NCBI GenBank assembly: GCA_003248125.1 | Contig: QJXZ01000089.1 | Coordinates: 3,995-67,994 of the forward strand | Reading direction: 5' to 3' | Origin: Gammaproteobacteria bacterium | Lineage (GTDB): Bacteria > Pseudomonadota > Gammaproteobacteria > Pseudomonadales > Azotimanducaceae | Length of the DNA: 64,000 nucleotides | Shown: piece after piece, positions 6,102-48,640 of the stretch | Layout: each line of letters starts with the position of its first letter | How positions within the stretch are numbered: position 1 is the first letter of the stretch | Program-made: the position numbers and the translations under genes | The notes under the pieces: model-generated | Seen by the model: the letters and a program-made list of their open reading frames with translations, nothing else | The model's database searches: none | What the model was told of the DNA's origin: nothing

Positions 6102-6106
6102 ATCAG

Positions 6107-7694: not shown

Positions 7695-8139
7695 CGCTGC
7701 ACATCAGGGCGCGCAGTGTGCGTACGTAGGCATCGCTCAGATACGGCTCGCCGGCGAGCAAGTGGGCAAGATACGCTCGACTCGGTCGGAGACCCGGTTG
7801 TCGCACGGCGCGATTAGCAAAATAGGTCCAGCCGACCAGCTCGATATCACCCGACTCCACCCGCACCAGTTCCCGGCTGTAGTTGATGGGCGTGCGCTCG
7901 AAGCGATCCATCCTCAGGATGTCTTCGGTACCTGCGAGGTCGTACAAGACCCCTTCGACCCAACTACCGCGTTCGAAATCGAGTGCGGCATGGCCAACAC
8001 CGACGTGATCACGCGACATCTTGTCGAACGTCAAGCGTACGCCGGCGAGCCGTGCGCCACGCACCGCGAGCACCTGCAGACCACGCGCGCGCACGCGCGC
8101 CGGGTTCATGTTCGAACCATAGGCGAAGTAGCGAACCAC
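7687..8139 (-). CDS. gamma-glutamylcyclotransferase (AIG2/GGCT-like)
   Basis: RYFAYGSNMNPARVRARG is the family N-terminal motif. GTG at 8139 lies 4 nt after the tusA stop and is preferred; ATG at 8178 (35-nt overlap with tusA) is the alternative. Confidence 0.72.
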   Translation of the reverse strand: MVRYFAYGSNMNPARVRARGLQVLAVRGARLAGVRLTFDKMSRDHVGVGHAALDFERGSWVEGVLYDLAGTEDILRMDRFERTPINYSRELVRVESGDIELVGWTYFANRAVRQPGLRPSRAYLAHLLAGEPYLSDAYVRTLRALMCSDD

Positions 8140-8501: not shown

Positions 8502-10004
8502 ATGGGATCGATCCGACAGACGTACCTGTTCGCCCTCATTTTGGCGCTGCCATGTGCTGCGCCGGCCACCGCCCAGGAAGTGCGCGGTGAGGTCGTTGGC
8601 TCGGCAGCGGCCGAGTCGACCGACAGCGAGGCAACAGCAACGGAGGATGCGGCCGAGCTCGCGCCACCGATGGGGGCAGGCGCGCCATCCGATGCCGCGA
8701 CACCTGACGGTGACGCCATCGGCACCGACGCGGCAAACGCATCGGCGCCCACCGATGTTGATGCGACGGTGGCAGGTGAGCTGGCCACCGAGCCGGCCGA
8801 CGAGCAGACCGACGACTTCATGGTGCGCGGCACGTTGCAGCTCGAGGCACGCGAGTTTGGCGATGCCGCGCGAACCCTTGCCGAAGGCGTCGCGGAAATG
8901 GAACGGGCGTTGCCGCGTTACGACGCCGCGCTCGCCCGGCCGCTCACGCTCCTCGGTGACGCTCAATTCGGGGAAGGTGAGTTCGCGGCCGCCGAGGAAA
9001 CCTACGGACGCGCGATTCACATCACCCGCGTAAACGAAGGGCTGCATTCACCAGCGCAGATTCCGATCGTCTACAAAGAAGCCGACACCATGGCGGCGCA
9101 AGGCAAGCTCGACGCTGCCAACGGCCGCCAGGAGTACGCCTACGAAACGCTGCGGCGCGCCTACGGTCCGGCTAGCGAAGCCTTGGTGCCGGGCATGTAC
9201 GCGCTCGCGGCCTGGTACAAGCGCACCCACAACATTTATTCGGCGCGCGAGCTTTACGCGTTGGCCGCGGAAACGCTGGCGCGTGTACACGGTCCCGACT
9301 CGCCTGAGCTCGTGCTACCCCTGCGCGGCGTCGCCGAAACCTTCCGCCAGGAACGATTTCCGCCCTATATCGCACCGAGTAAGCGGGAAGCGTTCACCGT
9401 CGGCACCGCCGCGTACAGCAACCAGGTCGCTGCCGAGCGGACGTTGGTAGTGAATCGGTACAGTGAGGGTGAACGCGCGCTCGGCGAAATCATTCGCATT
9501 CTCAACCAAGACCCGGACACGCCACGTCTGGACGTGGTGCTCGCCATCTTGGACCTCGCCGACTGGCACCTGCTGTTCGAGAAGTATTCGCGCGCGTTCG
9601 AGTTGTATGGCCGCGTGCAGGCGTTGATGGTGGAGGATGCGGGCCTGACTACCGAGGACATCGAGCGCTACTTCGGCCAGCCGATGCCGCTCTATCTGCC
9701 GATGCCGCCGAACCCCGATCCCCCTGACCCCACGCTCACCGCGCGTGCTACTGAAGGCTACGTCGAACTCGGCTACACGATCAGCGATCGTGGCGAGGTA
9801 CGCGACCTCGAAACGCTCGCCTCAGAGCCGCCGGGCATGATGGACATCAAGGTGCGGCGCGCCATGCGCGTGGCACGCTTCCGACCGCGTTTCGAGAATG
9901 GCGAACCGGTCGCAACACCGTTGCTCAAATACCGGCACCGTTTCGTCTACTACCCGGCACCCGAGCCGCCTGTCCACGAGCCGGAGGCAAGCGCCGGTGG
10001 CTGA
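8502..10004 (+). CDS. secreted TPR-repeat protein with C-terminal TonB_C-like domain
   Basis: Signal peptide MGSIRQTYLFALILALPCAAPATA/QE, an acidic low-complexity linker, then TPR-like helical repeats. The C-terminus EGYVELGYTISDRGEVRDLETLASEPPGMMDIKVRRAMRVARFRPRFENGEPV fits the TonB C-terminal domain pattern. Confidence 0.75.
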   Translation: MGSIRQTYLFALILALPCAAPATAQEVRGEVVGSAAAESTDSEATATEDAAELAPPMGAGAPSDAATPDGDAIGTDAANASAPTDVDATVAGELATEPADEQTDDFMVRGTLQLEAREFGDAARTLAEGVAEMERALPRYDAALARPLTLLGDAQFGEGEFAAAEETYGRAIHITRVNEGLHSPAQIPIVYKEADTMAAQGKLDAANGRQEYAYETLRRAYGPASEALVPGMYALAAWYKRTHNIYSARELYALAAETLARVHGPDSPELVLPLRGVAETFRQERFPPYIAPSKREAFTVGTAAYSNQVAAERTLVVNRYSEGERALGEIIRILNQDPDTPRLDVVLAILDLADWHLLFEKYSRAFELYGRVQALMVEDAGLTTEDIERYFGQPMPLYLPMPPNPDPPDPTLTARATEGYVELGYTISDRGEVRDLETLASEPPGMMDIKVRRAMRVARFRPRFENGEPVATPLLKYRHRFVYYPAPEPPVHEPEASAGG

Positions 10005-10162
10005 GGTCAACGCCCGTGGCTCGCACGCGTTGTTCGAATGGCCGGCACGGAAACTCGGGCCGGCGAGCGGCCTCTAAGTTGAAGCCGGACGCGCACTTAG
10101 AGCGCGCCGGACGATGTTCTATGATCGTGCGTGCGCCAAAGCGGCGCTCGAAGGAGATCGCC

Positions 10163-11110
10163 ATGCCCGCCATACGACCTTTCGCCCTCGTGGTCGCCTT
10201 GCTCGCCGGCACGGCCATGACCGCTTGCCAGTCGCAATCCCAGAGCTCGGGCGGCCAACCGCAGCCGCCGAGTAGCCCAAGTTCGCCCAGCATGCCGTCC
10301 CCAAGCAGCGTACCGAGCGTTCCGGGCACGCCCGGCACGCCAGGTACGCCCGGCATGCCGGCGCCACCGGCTCCGCCCAGCACCGATGGGGGCATCGAGG
10401 ACGCAACGGACGTGTTCGAAGACGCCCGTAATCGCCGCGAAAGCGGCGAATCCGGTGATGCTAGCGGCGACGCTGGTGATCGCGATGAGACCGCCGAAGC
10501 AGGCGCAGAGGGCGGCGGTCTGCCGGGTGATGAGTCGGCCGGCGACGACGATCAGACGGCAGATGCGGGCGGCCCAACCTGTGCCGAAGACGATCCCGAC
10601 TGCGACGAGACGACTACGGGTACCACGGGCAGCGGTACACCGGCTGGTGGCGACGAGCAGGTGGCGGCCGGCGGCGGCACGCCCTGTGACGAGGCCGACC
10701 CCACATGCACGTCGGGCGCGGACGGCGCATTCGAGCGCGCACTCGAAGACTTCGACGGCGCGATCCTCGCCGAGCGAGGCACCATCATCTCGAGCGCCAA
10801 CGAGACCGCCGCGGGCGACCCACGTGCCGACGAGGGCCGACCATCGGCCCGCGGCGGCATACCCGCGGTACCCGGCTCCGGCAACGGCAGCGCCCCCGAC
10901 GCATCGGGTCTGCCGCTGCCAAAGGCACCGGAAACACCGCCCCCACCGCCGCCTAGCACCGCACAGATGGACATTCCCAAGGACATTCCGGATGCACGCG
11001 ACGACGACGTGGTCGCTCGACAGCTACGGGAAGCGGCGATGCAAGAGACCGATCCGGTGCTTCGCGAAAAGCTCTGGGAAGAATATCGCCGCTACAAGAG
11101 TGGTAGCTGA
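10163..11110 (+). CDS. Pro/Ser/Gly/Asp-rich lipoprotein
   Basis: Inner ATG preceded by AAGGAG. Lipobox LLAGTAMTAC. Long QPQPPSSPSSPSMPSPSSVPSVPGTPGTPGTPGMPAPPAPP tract, then an acidic tract, then an ordered C-terminus DDVVARQLREAAMQETDPVLREKLWEEYRRYKSGS. Confidence 0.65.
   Translation: MPAIRPFALVVALLAGTAMTACQSQSQSSGGQPQPPSSPSSPSMPSPSSVPSVPGTPGTPGTPGMPAPPAPPSTDGGIEDATDVFEDARNRRESGESGDASGDAGDRDETAEAGAEGGGLPGDESAGDDDQTADAGGPTCAEDDPDCDETTTGTTGSGTPAGGDEQVAAGGGTPCDEADPTCTSGADGAFERALEDFDGAILAERGTIISSANETAAGDPRADEGRPSARGGIPAVPGSGNGSAPDASGLPLPKAPETPPPPPPSTAQMDIPKDIPDARDDDVVARQLREAAMQETDPVLREKLWEEYRRYKSGS
10322..10357 (+). repeat. four imperfect tandem 9-bp units encoding (PGT)3-PGM
   Basis: ccgggcacg / cccggcacg / ccaggtacg / cccggcatg, read directly from the sequence inside the lipoprotein gene. 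Confidence 0.7.
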
Positions 11111-12364
11111 GTGCAATTCGTAGTCCCGACCAGAACCATTGCCGCGGTCGCAGTGTTGGCCACGGTGCTCGGCTGTGGCTCAACGTCGGTGCGCAGCGTC
11201 GACATGCGGCCACCGGAACGCGCCACCAACGCCGTTCCCGAAGCGCTGCTGCTCGATGTCGGTGTCGCCATATTCGACGCCAACATACCGGAAGACTATG
11301 ACGAGCAGATCGAAGGCAACATTGCCCCCGAGGTGCGTCGCGCCGAGGGCAACTACATCGCCTACTTCTTGAAGAACGTGCTCCAAGACACGGGCCAATG
11401 GGGGGCCGTGCGCGTCGTGCCTCGTCATACCAATGCGGTCGACGTGATCGTCTCCGGCAAGATCATTGCATCGGATGGCGAACGCCTCCAACTGGAAGTG
11501 ACCGCCACCGATGCCACTGACACCGTGTGGTTTACGAAGCGCTACGAAGGTTTGTCGAGCCGTTATGCCTATGACGTTTCGGTCCCGCGCGAGTTCGATC
11601 CCTTCCAAACCGTCTATCGCGAGATCGCGGACGATCTGCTCGCACATCGGAAGAATCTGGACGAAACGGCAATTGGACGTGTTCGAACCGTTGCCGAGAT
11701 GAAATTCGCACGTGAATTCGCACCCGATGCGTTTGCCAATTACGTAGAACAGGACAAGCGTGGCCAGAGCAAGGTGGTACGCTTGCCAGCGACCAACGAC
11801 CCTATGCTGGCGCGTGTCCGGCGTGTTCGCGAACGCGAATACCTGTTCATCGACACCCTCGACGAATATTTCGCCGAGTTTCACCGCAAGATGTTCACGC
11901 CCTACCAAGAGTGGCGCCTCGCTACCTACGACGAAGCAATGGCATATCGCGAGCTGAAGGCGCAATCGCGCGCGCGCATGTTGGGCGGTGCGCTTGCCAT
12001 CGCCGGCGGGATCGGCGCCCTCACAAGTGACGACAACAGCGGCATGACGCAGGGTGCAGGGTATGTCGCAATCGTAGGTGGCGCGCTCGCGGTCCAGAGC
12101 GCGGTCAAGAAACGCGCCGAAGCGCAGATCCATGCCGACGTCCTGCAGGAACTTGGGGTCTCTGCCGAAGCCGAGATCGCACCCCACACCATCGACTTGG
12201 AAAACCGCACCGTCAGCCTGAGCGGCACCGTCGATGCTCAATACGACGCGATGAAACGCGTCTTGCGCCAGGTCTATTACGAAGAGCTCGGCCTCGCGCT
12301 GCCGCCCGAGCCGGCACTCCCCGCAGCGATCGAGACGGAGCCCGACGCCGGCAGCGACGCATAG
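11111..12364 (+). CDS. lipoprotein, unknown function (417 aa)
   Basis: GTG start immediately after the previous stop. Lipobox LATVLGCGS. Predicted hydrophobic Gly/Ala-rich segment LGGALAIAGGIGAL...YVAIVGGALAV near the C-terminal third. Confidence 0.7.
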   Translation: MQFVVPTRTIAAVAVLATVLGCGSTSVRSVDMRPPERATNAVPEALLLDVGVAIFDANIPEDYDEQIEGNIAPEVRRAEGNYIAYFLKNVLQDTGQWGAVRVVPRHTNAVDVIVSGKIIASDGERLQLEVTATDATDTVWFTKRYEGLSSRYAYDVSVPREFDPFQTVYREIADDLLAHRKNLDETAIGRVRTVAEMKFAREFAPDAFANYVEQDKRGQSKVVRLPATNDPMLARVRRVREREYLFIDTLDEYFAEFHRKMFTPYQEWRLATYDEAMAYRELKAQSRARMLGGALAIAGGIGALTSDDNSGMTQGAGYVAIVGGALAVQSAVKKRAEAQIHADVLQELGVSAEAEIAPHTIDLENRTVSLSGTVDAQYDAMKRVLRQVYYEELGLALPPEPALPAAIETEPDAGSDA

Positions 12365-13864
12365 ATGAGTTCGCAGTCCGACGACTTCGTCACCATCCGG
12401 CCACGACGTGCGCCGCTCGCCCACGTTCCTGCGGACGCGACGGTCGACGCCGCGTCTGCTACTCGTCGCTTGCCGCTCGCATGGCTCGGCTTTGCAGCAT
12501 TGCTCGCGCTCGCCATCTGGGTGTTGTTTTTCATGCCCGCGCCGGTCGTGGAGCCTCCGCCGCGCACGCCCGGCGTCGAGCAAAGCGCAGCGCCCCGTGC
12601 TGCCGACGCAACGCCCGCGCCGTTCGAAGACCTGCAACGCAAGCGGGCGCGTGACGACGCGCAGGCACTGCTGTCGCGATTCGTCGAACTGCAAATCCGG
12701 CTTGACGACGAGATGCAGGTCACCGAATGGGCGCCCGAGGAGTTCGAGGCCGCCCAACGCGCTGCCAACGATGGCGATCAGCGATTCTTGAAGGAGAACT
12801 ACGAAGCCGCTATGGCGGCATATCGAAGTGGTATCGACGGGCTAGAAGCTTTGGTTGCGCGCGGCCAAGCGACGTTCGATGACAACTTGGCAGCGGGACT
12901 GACCGCGTTGGCACGCGGCGATGCGCCGGCTGCACTTGCGGCGCTCGATACCGCCGCCATCGTGCATCCCGGCGATCCGCGGCTCGCTGCCGCGCGCCAC
13001 CGGGCCGAAGTGCTGCCGGAAGTCGTCGAGCTGACACGTCGCGCGGAGATCGCTGCCGCCAAAGGCGATGCCGCTGACGCCATCGATGCGTACACGCGCG
13101 CGCTAGCCCTGGACCCGACCCGCACCGATCTCGAGCCGCAGATTGCCGAGTTGCGGGCAACACAAGCGGATCGTGCCTTCGCGGCACGACTCACCACCGG
13201 CTTCGATGCACTCGATGCCGGCAATCTCGATCGGGCGCTCGATGCCTTCCGCGCCGCGCTGCGTGACCGACCCAACGATCAAGCTGCGCGCGACGGTCTC
13301 GCGCAGGTCGAGCAGGCGCAGACGCTGGCGCGTATCGAGTCGACGCGCCGACATGCCGTCGAGCTCGAGGCGGCCGAGGATTGGCCAGCTGCCGCAGCAG
13401 CCTACGGAGACGTGCTGGCGATCGACCCCACGATTCAATTCGCAACCGAAGGACGCGCACGCGCAGAAGCCCGCATACAGCTCGACCAACGATTGCGCGA
13501 CGCCCTGTCCGATCCGGGGGCGCTGTCGGCCGATGCGGTCTTCCAGAACGCGGTGGCCTTGTACGACGAGGCGGTCGACATCGCCGCTCCGGGTGCCAAG
13601 CTGACGGCACAGCTCGATCGGCTCGAGTCGATGATCGCTGTGGCCGCACAACCAACCACGGTGGTGCTGACCTCGGATGCGGCCACCGACGTGAGCGTCT
13701 ACCAGCTCGGCAACATCGGTCGGTTCGAGCGCAAGGAAGTCAGCCTGCGGCCGGGCCGCTACCTCGTTACCGGCAGCCGGCCAGGACGTCGCGACGTCCG
13801 CTTCGAGATGCTGGTGACCCCAGGCATGGCGCCGGTCGACGTGCGCTGCTCGGAAACGATCTGA
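12365..13864 (+). CDS. membrane-anchored TPR-repeat protein
   Basis: ATG directly abuts the previous stop. Single TM LAWLGFAALLALAIWVLFFM. Ala/Asp/Arg-rich TPR-like repeats. The C-terminal beta-rich segment TTVVLTSDAATDVSVYQLG...GRYLVTGSRPGRRDVRFEMLV is PEGA/CarboxypepD_reg-like. Confidence 0.7.
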   Translation: MSSQSDDFVTIRPRRAPLAHVPADATVDAASATRRLPLAWLGFAALLALAIWVLFFMPAPVVEPPPRTPGVEQSAAPRAADATPAPFEDLQRKRARDDAQALLSRFVELQIRLDDEMQVTEWAPEEFEAAQRAANDGDQRFLKENYEAAMAAYRSGIDGLEALVARGQATFDDNLAAGLTALARGDAPAALAALDTAAIVHPGDPRLAAARHRAEVLPEVVELTRRAEIAAAKGDAADAIDAYTRALALDPTRTDLEPQIAELRATQADRAFAARLTTGFDALDAGNLDRALDAFRAALRDRPNDQAARDGLAQVEQAQTLARIESTRRHAVELEAAEDWPAAAAAYGDVLAIDPTIQFATEGRARAEARIQLDQRLRDALSDPGALSADAVFQNAVALYDEAVDIAAPGAKLTAQLDRLESMIAVAAQPTTVVLTSDAATDVSVYQLGNIGRFERKEVSLRPGRYLVTGSRPGRRDVRFEMLVTPGMAPVDVRCSETI

Positions 13865-13866
13865 GC

Positions 13867-15912
13867 ATGCCGGCCGTCGACGGCGACGCGGTGATTCGGC
13901 CGCAGGTATTCGTGCCAACCAGCCGTCAGGCACGTCCACCGTGGTGGCGACGATACGGCGTTCGAATTGCACTCGGTATCGTGACGGTCGTGGTCGCGAC
14001 CGTGGTTTGGTACTTGTTCACCGCCCGCTCCGTGCGCATCGAGCTCACGCCTGCCGATGCCGCGCTCGAGATTCACGGCGCGTTCGATCTCGCGTTGGGT
14101 GGCACGTGGGTTCTGCGCGAAGGCCAGTATCGCCTCACCGCGAGCGCCGATGGGTTCTTCGATCTCGATGCGCCGCTCATGGTCGACGATGCCGAGTACC
14201 AAACTTACAGATTCGAGCTAAAGCCGCTGCCCGGACGCGTCGATTTCATCTCCAACCCTGCAGGCGCCGTGGTGTTCATCGATGGTGAGCGCATTGGTGT
14301 CACGCCGCTCGGCGCCATCGAAATCGCTGCCGGTGAACACGACCTCGAGATCGTCGAACGACGTCACGTCTCGCACATCGCCAAGCTCGACGTCGTTGGC
14401 CGCGGCACCGCCCAGCAAGTCGAGGTGATCCTCGAGCCGAATTGGGCGGACGTCACCATCGCGTCGACTCCGGCCGGCGCACAAGTACTGATCGATGACG
14501 AGAACATCGGGGTAACGCCCGGCACGTTCGAGGTAGTGGCTGGGACACGCGAGCTACGCATCAAGTTGCCGAGGCACAAGAGCGCCGTCGAGCAGTTGAC
14601 TGTCGCTGCGCGCCAGGCGTTGACCTTGCCGCCATTCGTTCTGCAACCGGCCGACGCCCTGCTCACGGTACGCTCGGCACCAACCGGCGTCGCGGTCACG
14701 GTGGATGGCAGGTATCAGGGTACAACGCCGCTCGAAGTGGCGTTGGCACCGGGCCGCGAGCACGCAGTGCGTCTGTCGAAGGCTGGCTACGCAGCTGCGA
14801 CCCGGCGCGTCACGCTGCAGGCGACCGACGAACGAACGCTCGAGGTGCAGCTCGACGCGCTGCTCGGTACCGTCATGATCACGGCAACCCCTGCCGACGC
14901 GGAAGTGTGGGTTGATGGCGTCGCACGCGGCGCGGTCCGGCGCCTGCAATTGCCGGCCCGAAGCCACCGGCTCGAGTTCAAGAGGGCTGGCTATGAGAGT
15001 CAAGCCAAAGAAGTGACGCCACAACCGAACATCACGCAGCAGCTGGCTGTCAGACTGCTCACCCACGCCGAAGCGCGGCTCGCGAAGCTCGTGCCGCGGA
15101 TCAAGCACCCGGCCGGAGGCGAGATGTTGCTGTTCGACGGCGGCGCAGTAACGATGGGCGCATCGCGCCGTGAGCCCGGTCGACGGGCCAACGAGACACT
15201 ACGCACCGTCAACGTCACACGTCTGTTCTATCTCGCGACCACCGAGGTCACGAACGGACAATTTCGGCAATTCGCCAAGGCGCACAGCTCCGGCAAGTTC
15301 GAAGAGCAAGAACTCGACAAGGACGACCAGCCGGTTGCCAACGTCACCTGGCTCGAGGCTGCACTGTTCTGCAATTGGCTTTCGGAGCGCGCGCGACTAC
15401 CCGTGTTCTATCGGGTCGAGTTCGGCAAGGTCGTCGGCTTCAATGCCAAAGCCACGGGTTTTCGTCTGCCTACCGAAGCGGAGTGGAGTTGGACCGCCCG
15501 CACAAGGCCCGACGGCTCACCGACTCAACGATTCCCGTGGGGAGATGCGCTGCCGCCCCCGGAACGATTCGGAAACTATGCGGACCGCTCGGCGTCTCAC
15601 GTGTTGGGTCGTATCGTATTCGGCTACAACGACAACTTCATCGTATCGGCGCCTGTCGCCACGTTCGCAGCCGATGCCCGAGGGCTTTTCGACTTGTCAG
15701 GCAATGTCGCTGAGTGGGTAAACGATTTCTATGAGATTCCCAGCGAAGCGGCTGCGTCCGACCCACTCGGACCAGCGAGCGGTGACTATCACGTGATTCG
15801 CGGTTCGAGCTGGATGCACGGCACGATCACGGATCTGCGCACGTCGTTCCGCGACTACGGCGAGGACGGTCGCCCCGACCTCGGCTTCCGCATCGCAAGG
15901 TTTGCAGAGTGA
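13867..15912 (+). CDS. membrane-anchored PEGA-repeat protein with C-terminal FGE-sulfatase (SUMF1/EgtB/PvdO) domain
   Basis: Inner ATG 2 nt after the previous stop. TM IALGIVTVVVATVVWYLF. At least 4 PEGA units (SNPAGAVVFIDGERIGVTP, STPAGAQVLIDDENIGVTP, SAPTGVAVTVDGRYQGTTP, ATPADAEVWVDGVARG). FGE-fold motifs: FYLATTEVTNGQFRQF, PVANVTWLEAALFCNWLS, GFRLPTEAEWSW, GNVAEWVNDFY, VIRGSSW, GFRIARF. Confidence 0.85.
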   Translation: MPAVDGDAVIRPQVFVPTSRQARPPWWRRYGVRIALGIVTVVVATVVWYLFTARSVRIELTPADAALEIHGAFDLALGGTWVLREGQYRLTASADGFFDLDAPLMVDDAEYQTYRFELKPLPGRVDFISNPAGAVVFIDGERIGVTPLGAIEIAAGEHDLEIVERRHVSHIAKLDVVGRGTAQQVEVILEPNWADVTIASTPAGAQVLIDDENIGVTPGTFEVVAGTRELRIKLPRHKSAVEQLTVAARQALTLPPFVLQPADALLTVRSAPTGVAVTVDGRYQGTTPLEVALAPGREHAVRLSKAGYAAATRRVTLQATDERTLEVQLDALLGTVMITATPADAEVWVDGVARGAVRRLQLPARSHRLEFKRAGYESQAKEVTPQPNITQQLAVRLLTHAEARLAKLVPRIKHPAGGEMLLFDGGAVTMGASRREPGRRANETLRTVNVTRLFYLATTEVTNGQFRQFAKAHSSGKFEEQELDKDDQPVANVTWLEAALFCNWLSERARLPVFYRVEFGKVVGFNAKATGFRLPTEAEWSWTARTRPDGSPTQRFPWGDALPPPERFGNYADRSASHVLGRIVFGYNDNFIVSAPVATFAADARGLFDLSGNVAEWVNDFYEIPSEAAASDPLGPASGDYHVIRGSSWMHGTITDLRTSFRDYGEDGRPDLGFRIARFAE

Positions 15913-16148
15913 CGTTGCGACGCCTCGCGCTGATCGCCGCTGTTGCACTTACGCTACCCCTGGCGGCTGCCGACGGTGAACGGTCGTCGACACCGCCAAC
16001 CCCGGGCGACGGACGCGACAGCACCGAGCCACAGACGGATGACGCCACCACAGAGGGTGACGATTCGGGCGGACCTTCGGCCGATGTGTTCGTGCCCACC
16101 GAAGAGATCTCCGAGGACGCCGCCGTCGCGTTCCCAGTCGACATATGA
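15909..16148 (+). CDS. small secreted acidic protein (79 aa)
   Basis: GTGA overlap with the upstream stop. Signal peptide MTLRRLALIAAVALTLPLAAA, then a Asp/Glu/Thr/Pro-rich mature part ending VFVPTEEISEDAAVAFPVDI. Confidence 0.5.
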   Translation: MTLRRLALIAAVALTLPLAAADGERSSTPPTPGDGRDSTEPQTDDATTEGDDSGGPSADVFVPTEEISEDAAVAFPVDI

Positions 16149-16187
16149 TGTGCGGCACGGTTCGATGACCATCGTCGAGAGAGCAGT

Positions 16188-16985
16188 ATGAAACGCGGGC
16201 TACCATTCGAACTCGTCTACCAGATCGTCGCGCTGGTGATTGCAATCATCGTCGTGCATCTCGTCTACATCACCGTCGTGCGGCCGAATGCCGATGCGGT
16301 GTTGCGCGCCGAAGCAGAGCGCCTCGCCGCCGGGGAATCGTTCGTTCAAGAGCGATCGTTGTACGTGGTGCTCAAAGACTACGAGCAGGAGTCGTGCTTC
16401 ATTCTGATGTTTTGGGCTGTTTCGATCATGGGATTCAAGGCACGCACGGCGCTCAAGGAGCGCGCGCTGCTGGACCAGAGCATCGTCACGGTCGCCGAAG
16501 GTATGAGCATTCTTCCCGAAGACACGCGCGAATACGCGCGACCCATACAAGCGTTCGATGCCGAGACGCGCGGTCTGCTACTGCCGCGCGTGCTGCTCGC
16601 GGCGTTGCAGCGATTTGCTTCGGCGCGCAACGTACAAGACGTGTCCGAAGCCGTCACGACGATCTGCAGCGCCGAATCGGATCGTCTCGACAGCGAGTTG
16701 TCGATGGTCCGCTACATCGCCTGGGCGATTCCTTCAATAGGGTTCATCGGCACGGTGCGCGGTATCGGCGACGCGCTCGGGCAGGCCTATCGCGCGGTCG
16801 AGGGTGACATTGCCGGCGTGACTGCGAGCCTCGGCGTAGCGTTCAACTCCACGTTCGTGGCACTCGTCATCAGCATCGTACTGATGTTCCTCATGCATCA
16901 GCTGCAGCTCATTCAGGAACGGCTCGTGCTCGATACGCAGACCTACTGCGACCAGCGACTCATTCGCCACCTGCAGGTGCGCTGA
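16188..16985 (+). CDS. MotA/TolQ/ExbB proton-channel family protein
   Basis: 265 aa with three predicted TM helices. C-terminal signature YIAWAIPSIGFIGTVRGIGDALGQAY...LGVAFNSTFVALVISIVLMFLMHQL corresponds to the MotA_ExbB domain. Confidence 0.85.
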   Translation: MKRGLPFELVYQIVALVIAIIVVHLVYITVVRPNADAVLRAEAERLAAGESFVQERSLYVVLKDYEQESCFILMFWAVSIMGFKARTALKERALLDQSIVTVAEGMSILPEDTREYARPIQAFDAETRGLLLPRVLLAALQRFASARNVQDVSEAVTTICSAESDRLDSELSMVRYIAWAIPSIGFIGTVRGIGDALGQAYRAVEGDIAGVTASLGVAFNSTFVALVISIVLMFLMHQLQLIQERLVLDTQTYCDQRLIRHLQVR

Positions 16986-18280
16986 TGACGACGTTCGTGC
17001 TCGACTTGAACGATGCGCAGCTGCGCGTCGGCCGGGGCACGGACGTGGTCGCACAGTCGTCGGGCTACGCGCTGATCGAGGGCAACCGGCTGCTGCTCGG
17101 CGATGACGCAAGGCGCGCATTCCGTCTGCATCCACGACAGGCACACAACGCCTTCTGGCACCGCTTGAGCACCGAAGTGCTCAGCCACCGGACCCGCGAG
17201 CTTGCGAGTCACGCCGATCTCGTCTACCGACATCTTCGCGCGCTCGTCGAGCAAGCGCACATCTCGCCAGGTGACGAGCTCATCATCGCCGCTGCGGCAA
17301 CCACTTCCGCCGAGCAGCTCGCCTTGCTGCTCGGTATCGCCGAGCAGGTTGGTCTGAATGTCACTGGTCTGGTCGACGCCGCGGTGGCCGCGACCGCCAC
17401 CGCAGAAATGCCAGCTCTCTTCCGCTACATCGATGTGGGGCTGCACCGTTTGTCGGTGACGCAAGTGCAAGGTGGCAACGAACTCGAGCGAGTCGGCTGG
17501 CAGGACATCACCGAGCTATCGCTCGCAGCGCTACTCGATGCATGGGTAAACGTGGTCGCTGACCGCTTCGTGCGCGAAACGCGTTTCGATCCCCTGGTCA
17601 ACGCGGCAACCGAGCAACAGGTCTACGACCGAATCTTCGACTGGTTCACCTCCGGCGCGCCCGCCGGCGATCTCGGCATAACCATCGAGCATGCCGGCAC
17701 CGAACGGCGCATCGACTTGTCGACGGCGCTGCTGACCGAGAAGGCGGTGAGCCGCTACCGGGTGATCGACAAGGCCCTCGACGGCGTGCCCATCGTATTG
17801 TCGCATCGTGCCGCCGCGCTGCCGGGATTCGAGGCTACCCTGCACGAACGGACGGGCACGATCATTGTCTGCAAGCCGGATGCCGTGTTCCAGGGCGTGG
17901 CCGGCCATCTCGGCGCCATTCGATCGACGGGCGACGGCGTTCGATTCGTCACGCGCCTGCCCTCCTCCGGCATCCGCCCGAGTCTCGAGGCACCGCGCAA
18001 GACTGCGCCCACCCACATTCTGTGCGGCTCGATCGCGCGCCCAATCGGCGCGGGCTTGACCATCGATGCCCTTCACTTCCCAGACCTGCCCAGCGACTTT
18101 CCCACCGGTTCGTTCGCGGTCCGGCCCGGTGACGAAGCTGCCAGTCTCAGCGTCGCGGCAGGAACTGCAGTTGCGGTAGACGGGGCGCCAGGGCGAGACG
18201 GCGTGGCGCTCGCAACCGGCGCGGTCATCGAAGTAGCGGGCGTACGGTTCACGCTGATCGAGGTGGCCGATGGCGCGTAG
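16985..18280 (+). CDS. cytoplasmic hypothetical protein, degenerate Hsp70/actin-fold-like N-region plus FHA-like C-terminus (tentative)
   Basis: TGATG overlap with the MotA-like gene. No signal peptide or TM. FVLDLNDAQLRV, ELIIAAAATTSAEQLALLLGIAEQVGLNVTGLVDAAVAATAT and FRYIDVGLHRLSVTQV sit where DnaK has GIDLGTTNS, AVITVPAYF..A..AG..V.R.INEPTAAA and DLGGGTFD, but the catalytic residues are replaced. The C-terminus ends VAVDGAP..VALATGAVIEVAGVRFTLIEV. Confidence 0.7.
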   Translation: MTTFVLDLNDAQLRVGRGTDVVAQSSGYALIEGNRLLLGDDARRAFRLHPRQAHNAFWHRLSTEVLSHRTRELASHADLVYRHLRALVEQAHISPGDELIIAAAATTSAEQLALLLGIAEQVGLNVTGLVDAAVAATATAEMPALFRYIDVGLHRLSVTQVQGGNELERVGWQDITELSLAALLDAWVNVVADRFVRETRFDPLVNAATEQQVYDRIFDWFTSGAPAGDLGITIEHAGTERRIDLSTALLTEKAVSRYRVIDKALDGVPIVLSHRAAALPGFEATLHERTGTIIVCKPDAVFQGVAGHLGAIRSTGDGVRFVTRLPSSGIRPSLEAPRKTAPTHILCGSIARPIGAGLTIDALHFPDLPSDFPTGSFAVRPGDEAASLSVAAGTAVAVDGAPGRDGVALATGAVIEVAGVRFTLIEVADGA

Positions 18281-19358
18281 CCGCGGTTTCAACGTGTTCT
18301 CGCTGTCGTTCCTCGACATCATGTCGTGCGGATTCGGCGCAGTAGTGCTCATCTATTTGATTATCAATCACGCCACGGAGGTCGAGTTTCGTACTCAACA
18401 GGAGGATCTGTACGCGGAAATCCGCAAGCTCGATTATGAAGTCGATGTCGGTGAGACGAATTTGGCGGACGTCAGGCAGTCGTTGAGCTCAGTCGAGCGG
18501 CGGCTGGACGAAGCGCGACGCCGCCGGGTCGCGTTGACCGTGAGTGTCGAAGACCGACGCAAAGAACTCACGCGCCTGCAAGCCGACACCCTTGCCAAGG
18601 TGGAGCACCTCAATCAGCTGAAGAGCGACGTGGAGTCACGCACCGAAGACGTCGAACGCATGAAGGCTTCGACGGCCGACGATACCGGCGAGCGGGCACG
18701 AACGTTCGTCGGCGAAGGAGACCGCCAGTATCTGACGGGTCTCAAGGTCGGTGGCGACCGCATCTTCATCGCCGTCGACACATCCGCGAGCATGCTGGAC
18801 GAGACCATCGTCAACGTGCTGCGCCGACGCAACATGGACGACTCGCGCAAGCTCGCGGCACCGAAATGGCGGCGTGCGGTGGCGACCGTCGAGTGGGTGG
18901 TTGCACAACTACCGCTCGAGGGTCAGTTCCAGTTGTACGGCTTTGCGGAACAGGCGGCACCCATCGTGTCGGGTACCGAGGGCCAATGGCTCGACGTGAC
19001 ATCGCGCACCGATCTCGACCGCGCCATCGACGGCCTGAAACAGATCGTGCCGACCAAAGGCACCAGCCTCAAGGCCGTGGTCGACGCCATCGAGAGCATG
19101 CGCCCGGCACCCGACAACATCATACTCATCGTCGATGGACTGCCGACGATTGGCGACCGCGCAGCCCGTTCAGCAATGGTGTCGGGGCGCGATCGCCTGC
19201 GCTTGTTCAACGATGCCGCTGACGATCTGCCGCTCAACATCCCGGTCAATGTCATTTTGTTCCCGATGGAAGGCGATCCTTATGCGGCCGGTTCCTACTG
19301 GGGCCTGGCACACGTAACGAAGGGCTCGTTCTTGTCGCCATCGAAGGACTGGCCATGA
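18270..19358 (+). CDS. single-pass TM / coiled-coil / vWA (MIDAS) protein, paralog 1
   Basis: N-terminal TM FSLSFLDIMSCGFGAVVLIYLI with an embedded Asp. About 130 aa of heptad-like charged sequence. vWA domain with MIDAS DTSAS, later KGTS and IVDGLPT. Confidence 0.82.
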   Translation: MARSRGFNVFSLSFLDIMSCGFGAVVLIYLIINHATEVEFRTQQEDLYAEIRKLDYEVDVGETNLADVRQSLSSVERRLDEARRRRVALTVSVEDRRKELTRLQADTLAKVEHLNQLKSDVESRTEDVERMKASTADDTGERARTFVGEGDRQYLTGLKVGGDRIFIAVDTSASMLDETIVNVLRRRNMDDSRKLAAPKWRRAVATVEWVVAQLPLEGQFQLYGFAEQAAPIVSGTEGQWLDVTSRTDLDRAIDGLKQIVPTKGTSLKAVVDAIESMRPAPDNIILIVDGLPTIGDRAARSAMVSGRDRLRLFNDAADDLPLNIPVNVILFPMEGDPYAAGSYWGLAHVTKGSFLSPSKDWP

Positions 19359-20353
19359 CCACGCGCAGGCGCCGACCCATAGAAGAGATCTCGATGTCGT
19401 TTCTCGACGTCATCTGCTGTGGCTTCGGGGCCGTCATCCTCCTGCTCATGATCACCAAGACTGCCGAGCCGCTGATCCTCGAGAAGACCAGCGTTCGGCT
19501 CAATGGCTTCGTCGCGCAACGGCAAGATTCGGTCCACGATATCCGTGGCCAGACCACCACGCTCACGCGCGAGCTGACGGACAAGCAGCGCGAGCTCGAC
19601 CAAGAGCTCGACACCATTGCCCGTCTCAACAGCCAATTGACGACGATCCTTGCGCAATACGACACCACGCGTAGCCAGTCTGAAGATCAGGTGACTCTGG
19701 AGACGAAACTCGCGTCCGCCAAGCAGAGTCTCACCGACGAGATGGAGCGATTACTCGGTACCGGCTTCGTACGGCAAGACAGCACGATCGGTGGGATTCC
19801 GGTCGACAGCGAGTACATCATCTTCGTGATCGACACCTCGGGCAGCATGTTCAATTTCGCCTGGGGCTTGGTGATGAAGAAGCTGTCCGAGACGTTGGCG
19901 ATCTATCCCACCGTCAAGGGCATTCAAGTGATGGACGATCAAGGCGGCTATATGTTCCCCCGCTACGCGGGTCGCTGGATTCCAGATTCACCTGCCCGTC
20001 GCCGCGCCATCATGGAGCGCATGCGCACCTGGAACCCGTTCTCGAACTCGAGTCCGGTAGAAGGCATCGAGCAGGCCGTGCGTACGTTCTACGACCCCGA
20101 CAAGCGTGTCAGCATCTATGTGTTCGGTGACGATTTCACGGGCAACAGCATCGAGGAAGTAGTCGATACTGTAGATCGCATCAATCGCGCCGATGATACC
20201 GGCCACCGTCGCATGCGCATCCACGCGGTCGGATTTCCGGTACTCGCGTCGGTGGCCGAGCGGCGCGCCTCGTTCCATCGGTTCGCGGCGTTGATGCGCG
20301 AACTCACGTATCGCAACGATGGTACGTTCGTCGGCCTACCGGAGTTCCGATGA
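19355..20353 (+). CDS. single-pass TM / coiled-coil / vWA (MIDAS) protein, paralog 2
   Basis: ATGA overlap with paralog 1. N-terminal TM ISMSFLDVICCGFGAVILLLMI, then a coiled-coil-like stretch. vWA domain with IIFVIDTSGSMFN and YVFGDDFTGN. Confidence 0.82.
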   Translation: MTTRRRRPIEEISMSFLDVICCGFGAVILLLMITKTAEPLILEKTSVRLNGFVAQRQDSVHDIRGQTTTLTRELTDKQRELDQELDTIARLNSQLTTILAQYDTTRSQSEDQVTLETKLASAKQSLTDEMERLLGTGFVRQDSTIGGIPVDSEYIIFVIDTSGSMFNFAWGLVMKKLSETLAIYPTVKGIQVMDDQGGYMFPRYAGRWIPDSPARRRAIMERMRTWNPFSNSSPVEGIEQAVRTFYDPDKRVSIYVFGDDFTGNSIEEVVDTVDRINRADDTGHRRMRIHAVGFPVLASVAERRASFHRFAALMRELTYRNDGTFVGLPEFR

Positions 20354-21030
20354 TCAATGCGAAGTGGAGGTATAGGGCAGTGAACATCGCGACGCGATAC
20401 CGTCGTAAGACACTGTTGATCGGCGTATGCAGCGCAATGGTCGGCTGCGGCGGCGGTGCCGCGGTGCAAGTGGAAGGAGATTTTCCGAAGCCGCTGATCG
20501 TCGCCTCGCCCGTGCACGTCGGACTGGTGCTCGACGATGCGCTCATCACCTACGTGCACACCGAAACCATCGAGAAGGCCGGGGAGTGGTCGGTCGACGT
20601 AGGCCCGATGCAGCCAAAGCTGTTCCGCAGCGTATTCGGCGCCATGTTCACCGATGTCACCGAAGTAGCAACGATCGCCGATGGTGCCGGCCTCGCAGGC
20701 GTGCTCGTACCGCGCATCGACAAGTTCCAAATTGCGGTGCCGGCACAGACCCGAAACGATTTCTACGAGGTCTGGATCCGATATGTGATTGCCCTCTACG
20801 ACGCCGGCGGCAGCCCCATTGTCGAATGGCCGCTGACGGCGTACGGTAAGACCAGCAAAGAGGAGTTCGGTCCGCTCGAGAGCGCCGACGAACCCGGCAT
20901 GAGGGCCGCGACCATGACCGCGATGCGCGATGCGGGTGCCTTCTTGGCATTGCGCTTTCCGACACTTCCCGAAGTACAGCGTTGGCTGCGCGCACACGCG
21001 AGTCCGGATGCGGAGGGCATGAGTCCATGA
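20350..21030 (+). CDS. lipoprotein, unknown function
   Basis: ATGA overlap with the upstream gene. Basic N-terminus then lipobox-like LLIGVCSAMVGCGGG. Confidence 0.65.
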   Translation: MINAKWRYRAVNIATRYRRKTLLIGVCSAMVGCGGGAAVQVEGDFPKPLIVASPVHVGLVLDDALITYVHTETIEKAGEWSVDVGPMQPKLFRSVFGAMFTDVTEVATIADGAGLAGVLVPRIDKFQIAVPAQTRNDFYEVWIRYVIALYDAGGSPIVEWPLTAYGKTSKEEFGPLESADEPGMRAATMTAMRDAGAFLALRFPTLPEVQRWLRAHASPDAEGMSP

Positions 21031-21680
21031 GAGTTGCGATCTTCGCCCTCGTCACGGCCGGCCTCACCAGCGGCTGCGTCACGACCACCATTCAAGAGAT
21101 GCGGGAAGCCGATACCGGCATCGAAGACGGCGAATCGGTCGTGGTGCTCGGTCGGCACCACAAGGGCGGCCAAGACATCGAGAGCGGCTTCGTGGATTGC
21201 GTGTCCAACAATCTCAACGGTGGACGCAACAAACTCGGCGTCATCCGTGAGGACGAGTTCGTCGATGCCATGTTCCCGTGGTTCGAACCACGCACTGCGC
21301 CGCTCACCACCACCGACCTACCCGAGATCATTGGCCACCCGATGCTGTCCGAGCGATTGGGCGAGATTGGTGTGCGCTATGTCGTGTGGGTGGAAGGCGC
21401 AACGCACCGTACCGATCAGGGCGGGTCACTCGCCTGCAGCGCGGGCCCGACCGGAGCCGCGTGCTTCGGCTTCTTGAGTTGGGAGGACGACTCTTCCTAC
21501 GAAGCCGCAGTTTGGGACATCAAGCAGGGTGCACAGGTCGGCCGCGTGAGTTCAGATGCCGTGGGTACCAGCTTCATGCCTGCGGTGATCGTCCCTGTAC
21601 CGTTCATCGCCCGAGTCCAGAACACGGCTTGCAGCACGCTGGCAGATCAGTTAAAGCGTTTTATCACAAACGACTCCTAA
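21027..21680 (+). CDS. lipoprotein, unknown function
   Basis: ATGA overlap with the upstream gene. MRVAIFALVTAGLTSGCVTTT. Last gene of the same-strand run. Confidence 0.65.
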   Translation: MRVAIFALVTAGLTSGCVTTTIQEMREADTGIEDGESVVVLGRHHKGGQDIESGFVDCVSNNLNGGRNKLGVIREDEFVDAMFPWFEPRTAPLTTTDLPEIIGHPMLSERLGEIGVRYVVWVEGATHRTDQGGSLACSAGPTGAACFGFLSWEDDSSYEAAVWDIKQGAQVGRVSSDAVGTSFMPAVIVPVPFIARVQNTACSTLADQLKRFITNDS

Positions 21681-22430: not shown

Positions 22431-23921
22431 ATGCCGGGCCGTTTTCCCTTAGCCCCAGATCGAGCCGACGTGGCCGACAATCGAACCGACGACATCGACC
22501 GCTTGATCGAGCGTCCGTATCGCGCGGGCTTCGTGACCGACATCGACTCGGATACGTTGCCGCCGGGCCTCGACGAGGACGTCATTCGTGCCATTTCGAT
22601 GCGCAAAGGCGAACCCGATTGGCTGCTCGATTGGCGCCTCGGCGCCTATCGCCACTGGCGAGCGATGCCCCAACCGGCATGGGCGCACCTAGAGTTTCCG
22701 GCAATCGACTTCGATGCCATTTCCTATTATTCGGCGCCGCGATCACAAGCCAACCGACCGAAATCGCTGGCAGAGGTCGACCCGCAACTGCTCGCCACCT
22801 ACGAGAAGCTCGGCATCCCACTGCACGAGCGCGCCGCGCTTGCCGGCGTCGCCGTCGACGCAGTATTCGATAGCGTTTCCATCACCACCACGTTCAAAGA
22901 CAAGTTGGCCGATGCAGGAGTGGTGTTTTGCTCGTTCTCCGAGGCCGTCGCGGCGTATCCGGAACTGGTGCGGCGCTATCTCGGTACGGTGGTGCCGCCG
23001 CGCGACAATTTCTACGCCACGCTCAACTCCGCGGTTTTCAGTGATGGGTCGTTCGTGTATGTACCGGCCGGCGTACGTTGTCCGATGGAGCTGTCGACGT
23101 ACTTCCGCATCAACGCCCGCAACACGGGCCAATTCGAGCGGACGCTGATCGTCGCTGAGCCGGGCGCCTACGTCAGCTACCTCGAAGGATGCACGGCACC
23201 ACAGCGCGACGAGCACCAGCTGCATGCCGCAGTGGTGGAATTGGTCGCGCTGGATGATGCCGAAATCAAATACTCGACCGTGCAGAACTGGTATCCCGGT
23301 GACGCCGAGGGTCGTGGTGGCATCTATAACTTCGTCACCAAACGCGGAGCGTGCATCGGCAGGCGCTCGAAGATCTCATGGACGCAGGTGGAAACCGGCT
23401 CGGCGATCACTTGGAAGTACCCGAGCGTGGTGCTGCGCGGCGACGACAGCATCGGCGAGTTTCATTCCGTAGCGCTGACCAACAACCGTCAACAAGCCGA
23501 CACCGGCACCAAGATGATCCATCTCGGACGCAACACGAAGAGCACGATCGTCTCGAAGGGCATCAGCGCCGGTCGCAGTCAGAACAGCTACCGAGGGCTG
23601 GTGCGCATCGCCCCGACGGCGCGAGGTGCGCGCAACCACACCCAATGCGATTCGTTGCTGATCGGCGACGCCTGCGGCGCGCATACGTTTCCGTACATCG
23701 AATCGAGTCAGCCCTCTGCGGTCGTAGAGCACGAAGCAACCACGTCGAAGGTCAGCGACGATCAGCTGTTCTTGTGCCGTAGCCGCGGTATCGATCCCGA
23801 GAAGGCGGTCAGCATGATCGTCAACGGTTTTTGCAAGGAGGTGTTCCGCGAGCTACCGATGGAGTTCGCAGTCGAAGCCGGCAAGCTTCTCGAGGTCAGC
23901 TTGGAAGGTGCCGTCGGATGA
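22431..23921 (+). CDS. sufB: Fe-S cluster assembly protein SufB
   Basis: 496 aa. [39 protein letters not shown] and [22 protein letters not shown] are typical of SufB. GTG at 22470 is an alternative start. Confidence 0.95.
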
Positions 23922-48300: not shown

Positions 48301-48640
48301 CGGGCACGATTACCCCACCGCCACCGCCGAACACGCGGATGTGTGACGCGCCGCGCTCGGCGAGCATGTCGACCACGTACTTGAAGTATTCGATGTGCCC
48401 GCCTTGATAGGAGCTGATGGCAATACCTTGCACATCCTCCTGCAGCGCCGACTCGACCACCTCCGACACCGAGCGGTTATGCGCCAGGTGGATCACTTCC
48501 ACGCCCGATGCCTGCAGAATGCGACGCATGATGTTGATGGAGGCGTCGTGGCCGTCGAACAGGCTCGCCGCGGTCACGAATCGCAAAGGCACGGTCTTTG
48601 CCGTCCGCTCACGCGGCAGTCTTCTCACCGCCTCACTCAT
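45368..48640 (-). CDS. icmF: fused isobutyryl-CoA mutase (B12-binding + MeaB-like GTPase + mutase domains)
   Basis: 1090 aa. N-terminal B12 domain with DGHDASIN (DxHxxG-type), P-loop [13 protein letters not shown], and a C-terminal methylmalonyl-CoA-mutase-like TIM barrel ([16 protein letters not shown]). Confidence 0.92.

Follow-up and report, generated by a model that had tools for sequence, protein, structure and literature searches.

A conserved envelope gene module around a TolQ-like protein and a pair of membrane-tethered vWA proteins, predicted to form a motor of the TPH-vWA class

Motors of the MotA/ExbB/TolQ family are 5:2 assemblies that carry energy from the inner membrane to the outer envelope of Gram-negative bacteria. 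Their known outputs are, to our knowledge, few: flagella, the Ton and Tol-Pal systems, gliding together with the type IX secretion system (T9SS), and Zorya. The subject of this analysis is a cluster of twelve plus-strand genes (g1-g12, numbered in order) at positions 8502-21680 of a stretch of 64,000 nucleotides (hereafter the window; positions 3,995 to 67,994 of contig QJXZ01000089.1, assembly GCA_003248125.1) from a gammaproteobacterium of the Azotimanducaceae. It is likely that this cluster encodes a proton-driven envelope motor of the 5:2 type that belongs to the TPH-vWA class (TPH, transpore helix).

The TPH-vWA class was predicted in 'Origin and Evolution of Bacterial Periplasmic Force Transducers' (Mol Biol Evol 2025, msaf138; PMC12204202; section 8, Fig. 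4c,d), a purely computational description that leaves the function open and places the class mainly in Proteobacteria and Verrucomicrobia. Homologs of vWA proteins tethered by a transmembrane (TM) helix, mostly in heterologous pairs, are encoded there beside a tolQ-like gene without tolR or exbD. The TM helix resembles that of TolR and ExbD, conserves an Asp and has no SHLS motif of the TolA/TonB kind; in AlphaFold 3 models of the paper's own examples the two Asp residues lie within the ring of Thr residues in the TolQ-like pentamer (PMC12204202). Beyond this work, literature searches turned up no paper on the arrangement: those for PEGA/FGE with MotA, or for ExbB with PEGA and von Willebrand, found nothing, and a 2025 survey of MotAB in mBio leaves vWA partners unmentioned. 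The original prediction, made from the letters of the window alone, did not recognise the gene combination; a tolQ-like gene with paired vWA genes had in fact been published in 2025, and it is the remaining genes that lie outside that text. The refuting condition set with the prediction, that this neighbourhood should already be a characterised system, thus applies in part.

All twelve open reading frames (ORFs) of that prediction are present on the plus strand at the coordinates it gave, and most of its domain calls are borne out by Pfam (TPR with TonB_C, TPR, PEGA with FGE, MotA_ExbB, and VWA_2 in g9). Single N-terminal TM helices, signal peptides and lipoboxes were confirmed by reading the sequences. 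The genes are as follows.

8502..10004, plus strand: g1, protein secreted to the periplasm, with TPR repeats between an N-terminal region that is acidic and disordered and a TonB_C-like domain at the C-terminus; lineage-specific accessory.
10163..11110, plus strand: g2, lipoprotein combining a long low-complexity linker, Pro-rich and acidic, with a helical segment of about 60 aa that is conserved at the C-terminus; core.
11111..12364, plus strand: g3, lipoprotein of 417 aa with a Gly-rich hydrophobic segment at about residues 290-330; core.
12365..13864, plus strand: g4, periplasmic TPR protein with an inner-membrane anchor and a C-terminal beta-rich domain; core.
13867..15912, plus strand: g5, protein with a TM anchor in which four PEGA domains are combined with an FGE-sulfatase (C-type-lectin-like) fold that is non-catalytic; core.
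15909..16148, plus strand: g6, acidic secreted protein of 79 aa with a conserved C-terminal tail; core.
16188..16985, plus strand: g7, TolQ/ExbB/MotA-family membrane protein of 265 aa, the presumed pentameric proton-channel subunit; core.
16985..18280, plus strand: g8, cytoplasmic protein of 431 aa with an Hsp70/actin-like nucleotide-binding fold (about 1-330) and a C-terminal FHA domain (about 340-431); accessory.
18270..19358, plus strand: g9, putative axle (stator-partner) subunit A with transpore helix, stalk of about 100 residues, linker and vWA domain; core.
19355..20353, plus strand: g10, putative axle (stator-partner) subunit B with the same architecture as g9; core.
20350..21030, plus strand: g11, lipoprotein of 226 aa with no fold assigned; lineage-specific accessory.
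21027..21680, plus strand: g12, Cys-rich lipoprotein of 217 aa with no fold assigned; lineage-specific accessory.

The translationally tight junctions described for this cluster are each confirmed when the coordinates are re-read. There is no gap at g2/g3 (11110/11111) and g3/g4 (12364/12365), a gap of 2 nt at g4/g5 (13864/13867), and six overlaps of 1-11 nt (GTGA at 15909, TGATG at 16985, an 11-nt overlap at 18270, and ATGA at 19355, 20350 and 21027). The largest gaps are the 158 nt between the end of g1 (10004) and the ATG of g2 (10163) and the 39 nt before g7 (16188). Consensus scans found no terminator- or promoter-like sites inside the cluster above shuffle expectation, and no RNA family was matched within it in an Rfam scan.

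The vWA pair links the cluster to the published class. In both g9 and g10 a few basic residues at the N-terminus lead into a TM helix (motif SFLD-x-x-x-CGFGA), which is FNVFSLSFLDIMSCGFGAVVLIYLI in g9 and ISMSFLDVICCGFGAVILLLMI in g10, with the Asp of the latter at residue 17; the Asp stands at the same place in the helices of E. coli TolR (INIVPLLDVLLVLLLIFM) and ExbD (INVTPFIDVMLVLLIIFM). This residue is kept in every ortholog from related loci (84/84 for g9, 74/74 for g10) and, among the 339 database homologs in which the helix is seen, in 338 (119/119 close ones, 105/106 representatives of a 50% clustering and 114/114 distant ones). F14, D16 and C20-G23 are invariant in g9. As in the published class, the helix is TolR/ExbD-like and has no SHLS motif, with the restriction that the statistics of the helix taken by itself are weak, and the vWA genes form a diverged pair: BLASTP aligns g9 and g10 with 29% identity over 185 aa (E 6e-10), from the TM helix through the coiled coil into the beginning of the vWA domain. 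A pair of paralogous vWA proteins had been proposed from the start, and this stands for g9 by its Pfam match to VWA_2, while g10 has no Pfam vWA match and is assigned through paralogy and its DTSGS motif, which belongs to the metal-ion-dependent adhesion site (MIDAS). In g9 the MIDAS residues D170, S172, S174, T265 and D289 are complete and invariant or nearly so. The AlphaFold 2 model of g9 (112-sequence alignment, pLDDT 80) consists of a continuous helix at residues 20-135, a flexible segment at 136-163 that holds the invariant GEGDRQYLTG, and a vWA fold at 164-362. With the latter, Foldseek retrieved MIDAS-type vWA proteins (4fx5, BatB, ITIH1, CLCA1, the LapA vWA domain and anthrax toxin receptor; E 5e-8 to 1e-5), and a g9 profile searched against the PDB gave coiled coils only. 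The window therefore shares with the class TM-tethered proteins with C-terminal vWA domains, by Pfam, AlphaFold 2 and Foldseek for g9 and by paralogy and DTSGS for g10.

A tolQ-like gene lies in the same operon, and no tolR, exbD or motB accompanies it in the cluster. g7 matches Pfam MotA_ExbB (1.2e-14) and, at 29 bits against a cut-off of 221, NCBIfam tolQ (7.9e-7). An alignment with E. coli TolQ and ExbB brings out the common PxIGxxGTVxGI motif, which is kept in 74/74 orthologs, and a Thr in the third TM helix (TM3), where 'NST' of g7 aligns with 'IAT' of TolQ and 'LAT' of ExbB; the Thr of GTV aligns with T145 of TolQ and T148 of ExbB. The pore Thr residues of the published class (GTV and TM3) are thus kept. 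No other gene of the cluster is as well conserved as g7 (57-81% identity among related loci), and phmmer with g7 against PDB sequences did not reach TolQ or ExbB.

Pfam, NCBIfam and PADLOC scans of cluster and flanks found no ExbD/TolR/MotB, OmpA-like, TonB-dependent receptor, MoxR/DUF58 (Bat), flagellar, nuclease or helicase families. The absences listed in the original prediction hold, as does its statement that by membership this is not a Ton, Tol-Pal, Bat, Zorya, flagellar or Glt/Gld system. The conclusion drawn from them, an orphan channel with no canonical stator partner, does not hold in view of the Asp-bearing helices of g9 and g10; it is an interpretation and not an observation. Because this helix is TolR/ExbD-like and its Asp conserved, g9 and g10 are, judging from sequence, the predicted two-helix, Asp-bearing partner, in which a vWA head replaces the ExbD or OmpA-like periplasmic domain.

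Domain identities, motifs, folds, residue conservation, paralogy and gene-order co-conservation are direct observations. What we infer from them are the 5:2 assembly and its stoichiometry, rotation, the assignment of partners and the physiological output. In the proposed mechanism g7 would form a pentamer in the inner membrane, and g9 and g10 a central heterodimer whose N-terminal Asp helices would occupy the pore of the pentamer in place of TolR, ExbD or MotB. Protonation and deprotonation of the two Asp residues, with protons flowing through the Asp/Thr site, would make the pentamer turn with respect to the dimer. Both subunits of the dimer would reach into the periplasm with a helical stalk of about 100 residues (about 14 nm), followed by a linker, which is flexible, and a vWA head whose MIDAS is intact, so that the motor would exert rotation or tension on the structure, near the outer membrane, that is bound by the vWA heads. 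As likely partners one can name the co-conserved lipoproteins g2 and g3, the TPR protein g4, the GldK-related and non-catalytic g5, and g6 as a docking peptide; to these the Pseudomonadales-type lineage would have added g8, g1, g11 and g12. Our best guess is that the output is force on outer-membrane lipoproteins or on an envelope structure rather than transport. A conserved envelope cluster around a protein of the MotA/TolQ/ExbB family, plausibly powered by the proton motive force and with its output left open, had been proposed at the outset, and this part of the original prediction is supported.

Gene presence was counted by tblastn of the twelve proteins in 43 related loci with full flanks, from different species. 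The twelve-gene order is colinear in 42 of the 43, so the conservation of the neighbourhood, named beforehand as a check, is found; because the same order recurs in so many loci from different species, the arrangement is far beyond chance. g4, g5, g8, g9 and g10 are present in all 43 loci, g3 and g7 in 41, g2 and g11 in 38, and g1 and g12 in 34, and the g9/g10 pair is found in every locus that covers its region. The best 80 genome loci belong nearly all to uncultured Pseudomonadales-type Gammaproteobacteria. A profile built from distant representatives also reached Alteromonadales (Agaribacter, Glaciecola, Thalassomonas viridans, Ningiella, Alteromonas), the Alphaproteobacteria Aestuariispira and Sneathiella marina, and a metagenome-assembled genome (MAG) of the zetaproteobacterial Mariprofundaceae.

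Five of these distant loci (L088-L092), from Gamma-, Alpha- and Zetaproteobacteria and with unrelated flanks, carry eight genes in the same order: a protein of 186-276 aa, a lipoprotein of 410-429 aa, a TM protein of 454-493 aa, a PEGA and FGE protein, an ORF of about 50 aa, a MotA_ExbB protein and two vWA proteins. Orthology to the window genes was seen by blastp in L088-L090 (g2 4e-14 and C-terminal only, g3 1e-55, g4 1e-21, g5 3e-103, g7 7e-67, g9 8e-57, g10 3e-80), and g1, g8, g11 and g12 are absent from these three modules. Since the distant loci hold only the module genes, the conserved unit is the eight genes g2-g7, g9 and g10, and g1, g8, g11 and g12 are lineage-specific additions. The cluster had been described as one twelve-gene unit; the gene order stands, its indivisibility does not. 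In all five distant loci the motor gene directly adjoins the vWA pair, whereas in the window g8 is inserted between motor and axle genes, which are therefore not adjacent. The family is large. The relatives of g9 number more than 5437 proteins at 90% clustering, labelled only 'hypothetical' or 'VWA domain-containing', at least 596 stretches in species-representative genomes encode one by a pattern scan, and the g10 family comprises 1234 clusters at 50% identity (E<=1e-3).

Several observations weigh against a motor of this class. Assembly and proton flux are predictions from sequence and models. No outer-membrane beta-barrel and no known substrate is encoded in the cluster, so the output is a guess. 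The homology of so short a TM helix to TolR/ExbD is drawn from motif and context with weak statistics: a Pfam scan of the isolated N-terminal helices of g9 and g10 orthologs gave no ExbD or MotB match at E<=10, and the sole statistical support is a weak PADLOC match of g9 residues 8-74 to ZorB1 (E 0.0092). Membership in the TPH-vWA class, whose published seed is from Idiomarina loihiensis, is by the features described for it, as read from the sequences; among Alteromonadales, homologs of the family are found in Agaribacter, Glaciecola, Thalassomonas and Alteromonas. Finally, six related loci (L003, L006, L007, L009, L026, L030) have no MotA-like gene within about 8-21 kb per locus and nevertheless retain g8 and the Asp-bearing g9 and g10, which means either that linkage of the pentamer gene is dispensable or that a dedicated pentamer is not needed for the vWA pair to work. 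In these loci a g6-like ORF ends 15-18 nt before the start of g8 (L003:8311-8634, and at the same position in the others), tblastn found no g7 remnant even at E<10, and by its other proteins the subclade is, if anything, the nearest to the window.

The loci without a MotA-like gene would suit another explanation, in which a Bat-like pair of membrane-anchored vWA proteins forms a static periplasmic scaffold or adhesion complex, with the TolQ-like protein an unrelated or structural neighbour; BatB is also among the best structural matches of the g9 vWA domain. Such an arrangement would hardly keep a buried TM Asp, costly unless functional, in 84/84 and 74/74 orthologs and across classes. Nor would it account for g7 being the most conserved gene and adjoining the vWA pair in all five distant modules, and relatives of MoxR/DUF58 or BatC-E are not found in the cluster. 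A non-motor complex thus appears improbable, and the motor remains the preferred explanation.

Some loci and sequences deserve mention in their own right. g9 is 100% identical to database protein P0001 (NCBI and JGI sources). Four loci seemed to hold g9-g10 fusions of about 700 aa; this was rejected, as an in-frame stop divides the genes. In L067 an insert of about 5.1 kb (L067:4856-9988) between g8 and g9 has only dubious ORFs and no homology to cluster proteins; tandem g8 copies were considered for it and rejected, none being found by blastp. L044 has about 2.7 kb of foreign DNA between g5 and g6 (about 5000-7770), apparently encoding an FAD-dependent oxidoreductase. Close homologs also occur under odd labels (L055 and L077, Klebsiella pneumoniae; L075, Enterobacteriaceae; L051, L052, L070, L072 and L084, Acidobacteriota-type), metagenome bins whose taxonomy may be mis-assigned or which may be chimeric.

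Among the other core proteins, the two lipoproteins have no assigned family. g2 (lipobox ...GTAMTAC) has no Pfam or NCBIfam match, and over its C-terminal 60-70 residues blastp relates it to the gene that opens the distant modules (4e-14, 3e-11, 4e-4). g3 (lipobox VLGC) is found with 38-61% identity in 41/43 full-length related loci and at about 1e-55 by blastp in distant modules; nothing was matched in Pfam, with all aligned orthologs included, or in the PDB by profile. g4 has TPR repeats (Pfam TPR_2 5.9e-10, and TPR_1) and one TM helix at residues 38-56, occurs in 43/43 related loci and reaches distant modules at 1e-21 to 2e-8. In E. coli, lipoproteins without Asp at position +2 are sorted to the outer membrane. 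The lipobox proteins g2, g3, g11 and g12 all have no Asp there, and by this rule they would be predicted to be outer-membrane lipoproteins.

g6 has a signal peptide, visible in its sequence, and relatives of about 50-100 aa. Its C-terminal tail is near-invariant, ...P(S/T)E(E)IS(E)D.(A/S)(V/I).[FY]PVDI-COOH, and outside it neither length nor sequence is constant. In 68 of 77 loci the motor gene has just upstream an ORF that ends in [FY]PVDI, among them those of Thalassomonas, Sneathiella and the Mariprofundaceae MAG (upstream of 8157 in L088, L089:8015-8167, L090:7677-7838). Gamma-, Alpha- and Zetaproteobacteria all conserve the tail, and in the Thalassomonas viridans record no gene is called for this ORF. 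A tail conserved in this way is probably a docking peptide, a candidate ligand for another subunit. MIDAS sites bind acidic ligands and TPR domains can clamp C-terminal peptides; as candidate receptors one might name the MIDAS sites of g9 and g10, the TPR groove of g4, or g5.

g5 combines PEGA domains in four stretches (Pfam 2.8e-46) with an FGE-sulfatase domain (7e-41) and reaches distant modules at about 1e-100 (3e-103). In formylglycine-generating enzymes (FGE) a Cys pair is catalytic. The last 60 residues of g5 hold no Cys in 68/68 orthologs and 3 distant homologs, and the catalytic pair is therefore absent. The best curated family for g5 is GldK/PorK, the ring lipoprotein of the T9SS (NCBIfam 4.8e-27, 95 bits against a cut-off of 350), and GldJ matches as well. 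This likeness raises an alternative that concerns the output and not the motor itself, namely a GldKLMN-like rotary drive whose vWA axle would spin in the manner of GldM and drive an assembly of g5 and the lipoproteins for motility, adhesin movement or secretion. The FGE fold of g5 is non-catalytic as in GldK and GldJ, and the order of FGE-fold, pentamer and dimer genes parallels gldK-gldL-gldM. A long helical stalk with a distal binding domain would also suit an axle that reaches the outer membrane, and vWA adhesins act in the gliding of Myxococcus (PMC9946355). At 95 bits, however, g5 is far from the GldK cut-off and it carries an inner-membrane TM anchor where GldK is a lipoprotein, while g7 falls in the MotA_ExbB family and not in GldL. 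NCBIfam gave no match to the GldL, GldM or GldN families among g7-g10, and neither SprA nor T9SS cargo nor an outer-membrane barrel family was detected. Most hosts are Pseudomonadales that are planktonic or uncultured, and they are not known to glide. We consider a drive of this kind unlikely, and force on outer-membrane lipoproteins or an envelope structure is still the output we would favour.

One of the four lineage-specific additions is g8. Described originally as a leaderless 431-aa protein, it can now be assigned an Hsp70-like nucleotide-binding fold with an FHA domain. A profile of 36 sequences against the PDB matched Hsp70 nucleotide-binding domains at 82-308 and FHA domains at 362-430, and of 80 homologs 18 match Pfam FHA (best 2.5e-14) and 15 match Yop-YscD_cpl, the FHA-like family of YscD. 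The AlphaFold 2 model (pLDDT 94.3, pTM 0.80) has DnaK, BiP, Hsp110 and Ssz1 as top Foldseek matches (E about 1e-16); compared with isolated nucleotide-binding domains, it reaches target-normalised TM-scores of 0.66-0.71. Its phosphate loops look degenerate in sequence (LDLNDAQL for IDLGTTNS, IDVGLHR for DLGGGTFD), and acidic residues appear to be kept at the positions equivalent to DnaK D8, E171 and D194. g8 is present only in Pseudomonadales-type loci, between motor and axle genes, is absent from L088-L092, and is the least conserved gene of the cluster (26-45% identity). Probably it is a scaffold or a (phospho-dependent) regulator at the cytoplasmic face of the motor, and it may or may not still hydrolyse ATP.

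g1 matches TPR_12 (9e-11) and TonB_C (2.3e-7) in Pfam and, under the cut-off, tonB_Cterm in NCBIfam (3.6e-5). Its signal peptide is cleavable and a TM helix is absent; the protein is found with 25-50% identity in 34/43 full-length related loci and in none of L088-L092. g11 (lipobox MVGC; 38/43 related loci, 28-50% identity) and g12 (lipobox LTSGC; 34/43, 41-67%) are both absent from distant modules. Neither has a match in the PDB or in Pfam, both being searched as profiles against the PDB and g12 in Pfam with all aligned orthologs; five Cys are invariant in 35 orthologs of g12.

Taken at its fullest, the cluster would encode a complete trans-envelope machine that is widespread in Proteobacteria, in which a TolQ-like pentamer spins or pulls a heterodimeric vWA-tipped axle that engages the GldK-like PEGA/FGE protein and outer-membrane lipoproteins, the [FY]PVDI peptide serves as docking ligand or clutch, and, in Pseudomonadales, g8 provides phospho-threonine or nucleotide control. 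Such a machine would be a proteobacterial counterpart of GldKLMN with a new output. We advance it tentatively, as an attractive possibility rather than the probable case.

The flanks of the cluster are housekeeping genes unrelated to it. Upstream lie genes for an NAD kinase and a DAO oxidoreductase on the opposite strand, and downstream follow a minus-strand ORF without Pfam match, whose homologs in related loci are called methyltransferases, and then sufBCD. In many related genomes (L001, L003 and others) the cluster likewise stands directly upstream of the sufBCD(S) operon with the minus-strand ORF between them (window 22431-25812); the same position across many relatives suggests stable vertical inheritance and not a mobile island. 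tblastn of g10 against 72,556 plasmids gave zero matches. These findings bear on a further alternative, a Zorya-like or other anti-phage defence system with a MotAB-like sensor, for which weak PADLOC matches could be cited, that of g7 to ZorA2 (E 0.0066) beside that of the g9 N-terminus to ZorB1. Matches of this kind reflect only the common ancestry of MotA and MotB. ZorC, ZorD, nuclease and helicase are all missing, the chromosomal site beside the suf operon is stable in many species where a variable island would be expected, and no plasmid copies were found. ZorA has a long C-terminal tail and ZorB a peptidoglycan-binding domain. With PADLOC E values that are marginal, a g7 of only 265 aa and no effector domains, the defence reading was rejected, and its probability is negligible.

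Further along the window, three genes were noted. The first, 16.6 kb downstream of the cluster, is of the sulfatase family (38301-39863, plus strand; Pfam Sulfatase 2e-43); it probably has no relation to g5, in whose FGE fold the catalytic cysteines are missing. A 942-aa ORF (41123-43951, plus strand) has no Pfam match at E<=1e-5, and a 1090-aa fusion of B12-binding, MeaB GTPase and methylmalonyl-CoA mutase domains (45368-48640, minus strand) has an IcmF-like architecture.

For a large family of putative motors, with members in at least 596 species genomes and with 1234 clusters at the 50% identity level, the eight-gene unit, the candidate peptide ligand, the GldK-like partner and the Hsp70-like/FHA subunit make a brief computational prediction testable by genetics and cryo-EM. 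Cultured carriers are now identified in Thalassomonas viridans, Sneathiella marina, Agaribacter, Glaciecola and Aestuariispira.

When set beside described systems, the cluster resembles GldKLMN/PorKLMN in a 5:2-type motor driven by the proton motive force, with a central dimer that spans the periplasm as an axle (here predicted), in a non-catalytic FGE-fold gene just upstream of the motor genes and in lipoprotein partners. It differs in its MotA_ExbB pentamer, in an axle of coiled coil and vWA domain, in the PEGA repeats of g5, and in having no GldN, translocon or cargo. With ExbB-ExbD-TonB and TolQ-TolR-TolA/Pal it shares the homology of g7 to ExbB and TolQ, the Asp of the central helix, a TonB_C-like protein (g1), lipoproteins, and the presumed coupling of the inner-membrane proton motive force to the outer envelope. 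Unlike these systems it has no ExbD/TolR periplasmic domain, no TonB-dependent receptor, TolA, TolB or Pal, and no side-docking TonB/TolA transducer (g1 being secreted and without TM helix), so that the central dimer itself would deliver the force. The Agl-Glt machinery of Myxococcus xanthus likewise combines a TolQ-like motor with TonB_C, TPR, lipoproteins and a vWA protein. There, however, the vWA protein, CglB, acts as an adhesin and is a lipoprotein of the outer membrane, and the motor contains ordinary TolR-like AglQ/AglS, whereas the window cluster is arranged differently and no Glt families were detected in it. From the Bat operon the cluster is set apart by having no MoxR/DUF58, the likeness to BatB being one of the vWA fold only.

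The closest match remains the TPH-vWA class (PMC12204202), whose text covers a tolQ-like gene together with a vWA pair only, in contrast to the eight conserved genes found here. The module adds two lipoproteins, a TM-anchored TPR protein, a PEGA/FGE protein and a small secreted [FY]PVDI protein, and this lineage four genes more. As far as the published text shows, the eight-gene core, the tail of g6, the GldK-like non-catalytic PEGA/FGE partner, the Hsp70-like/FHA subunit with the other additions, and the subclade without a MotA-like gene all go beyond it. The system is an elaborated, still hypothetical variant of this recently predicted class of 5:2 motors.

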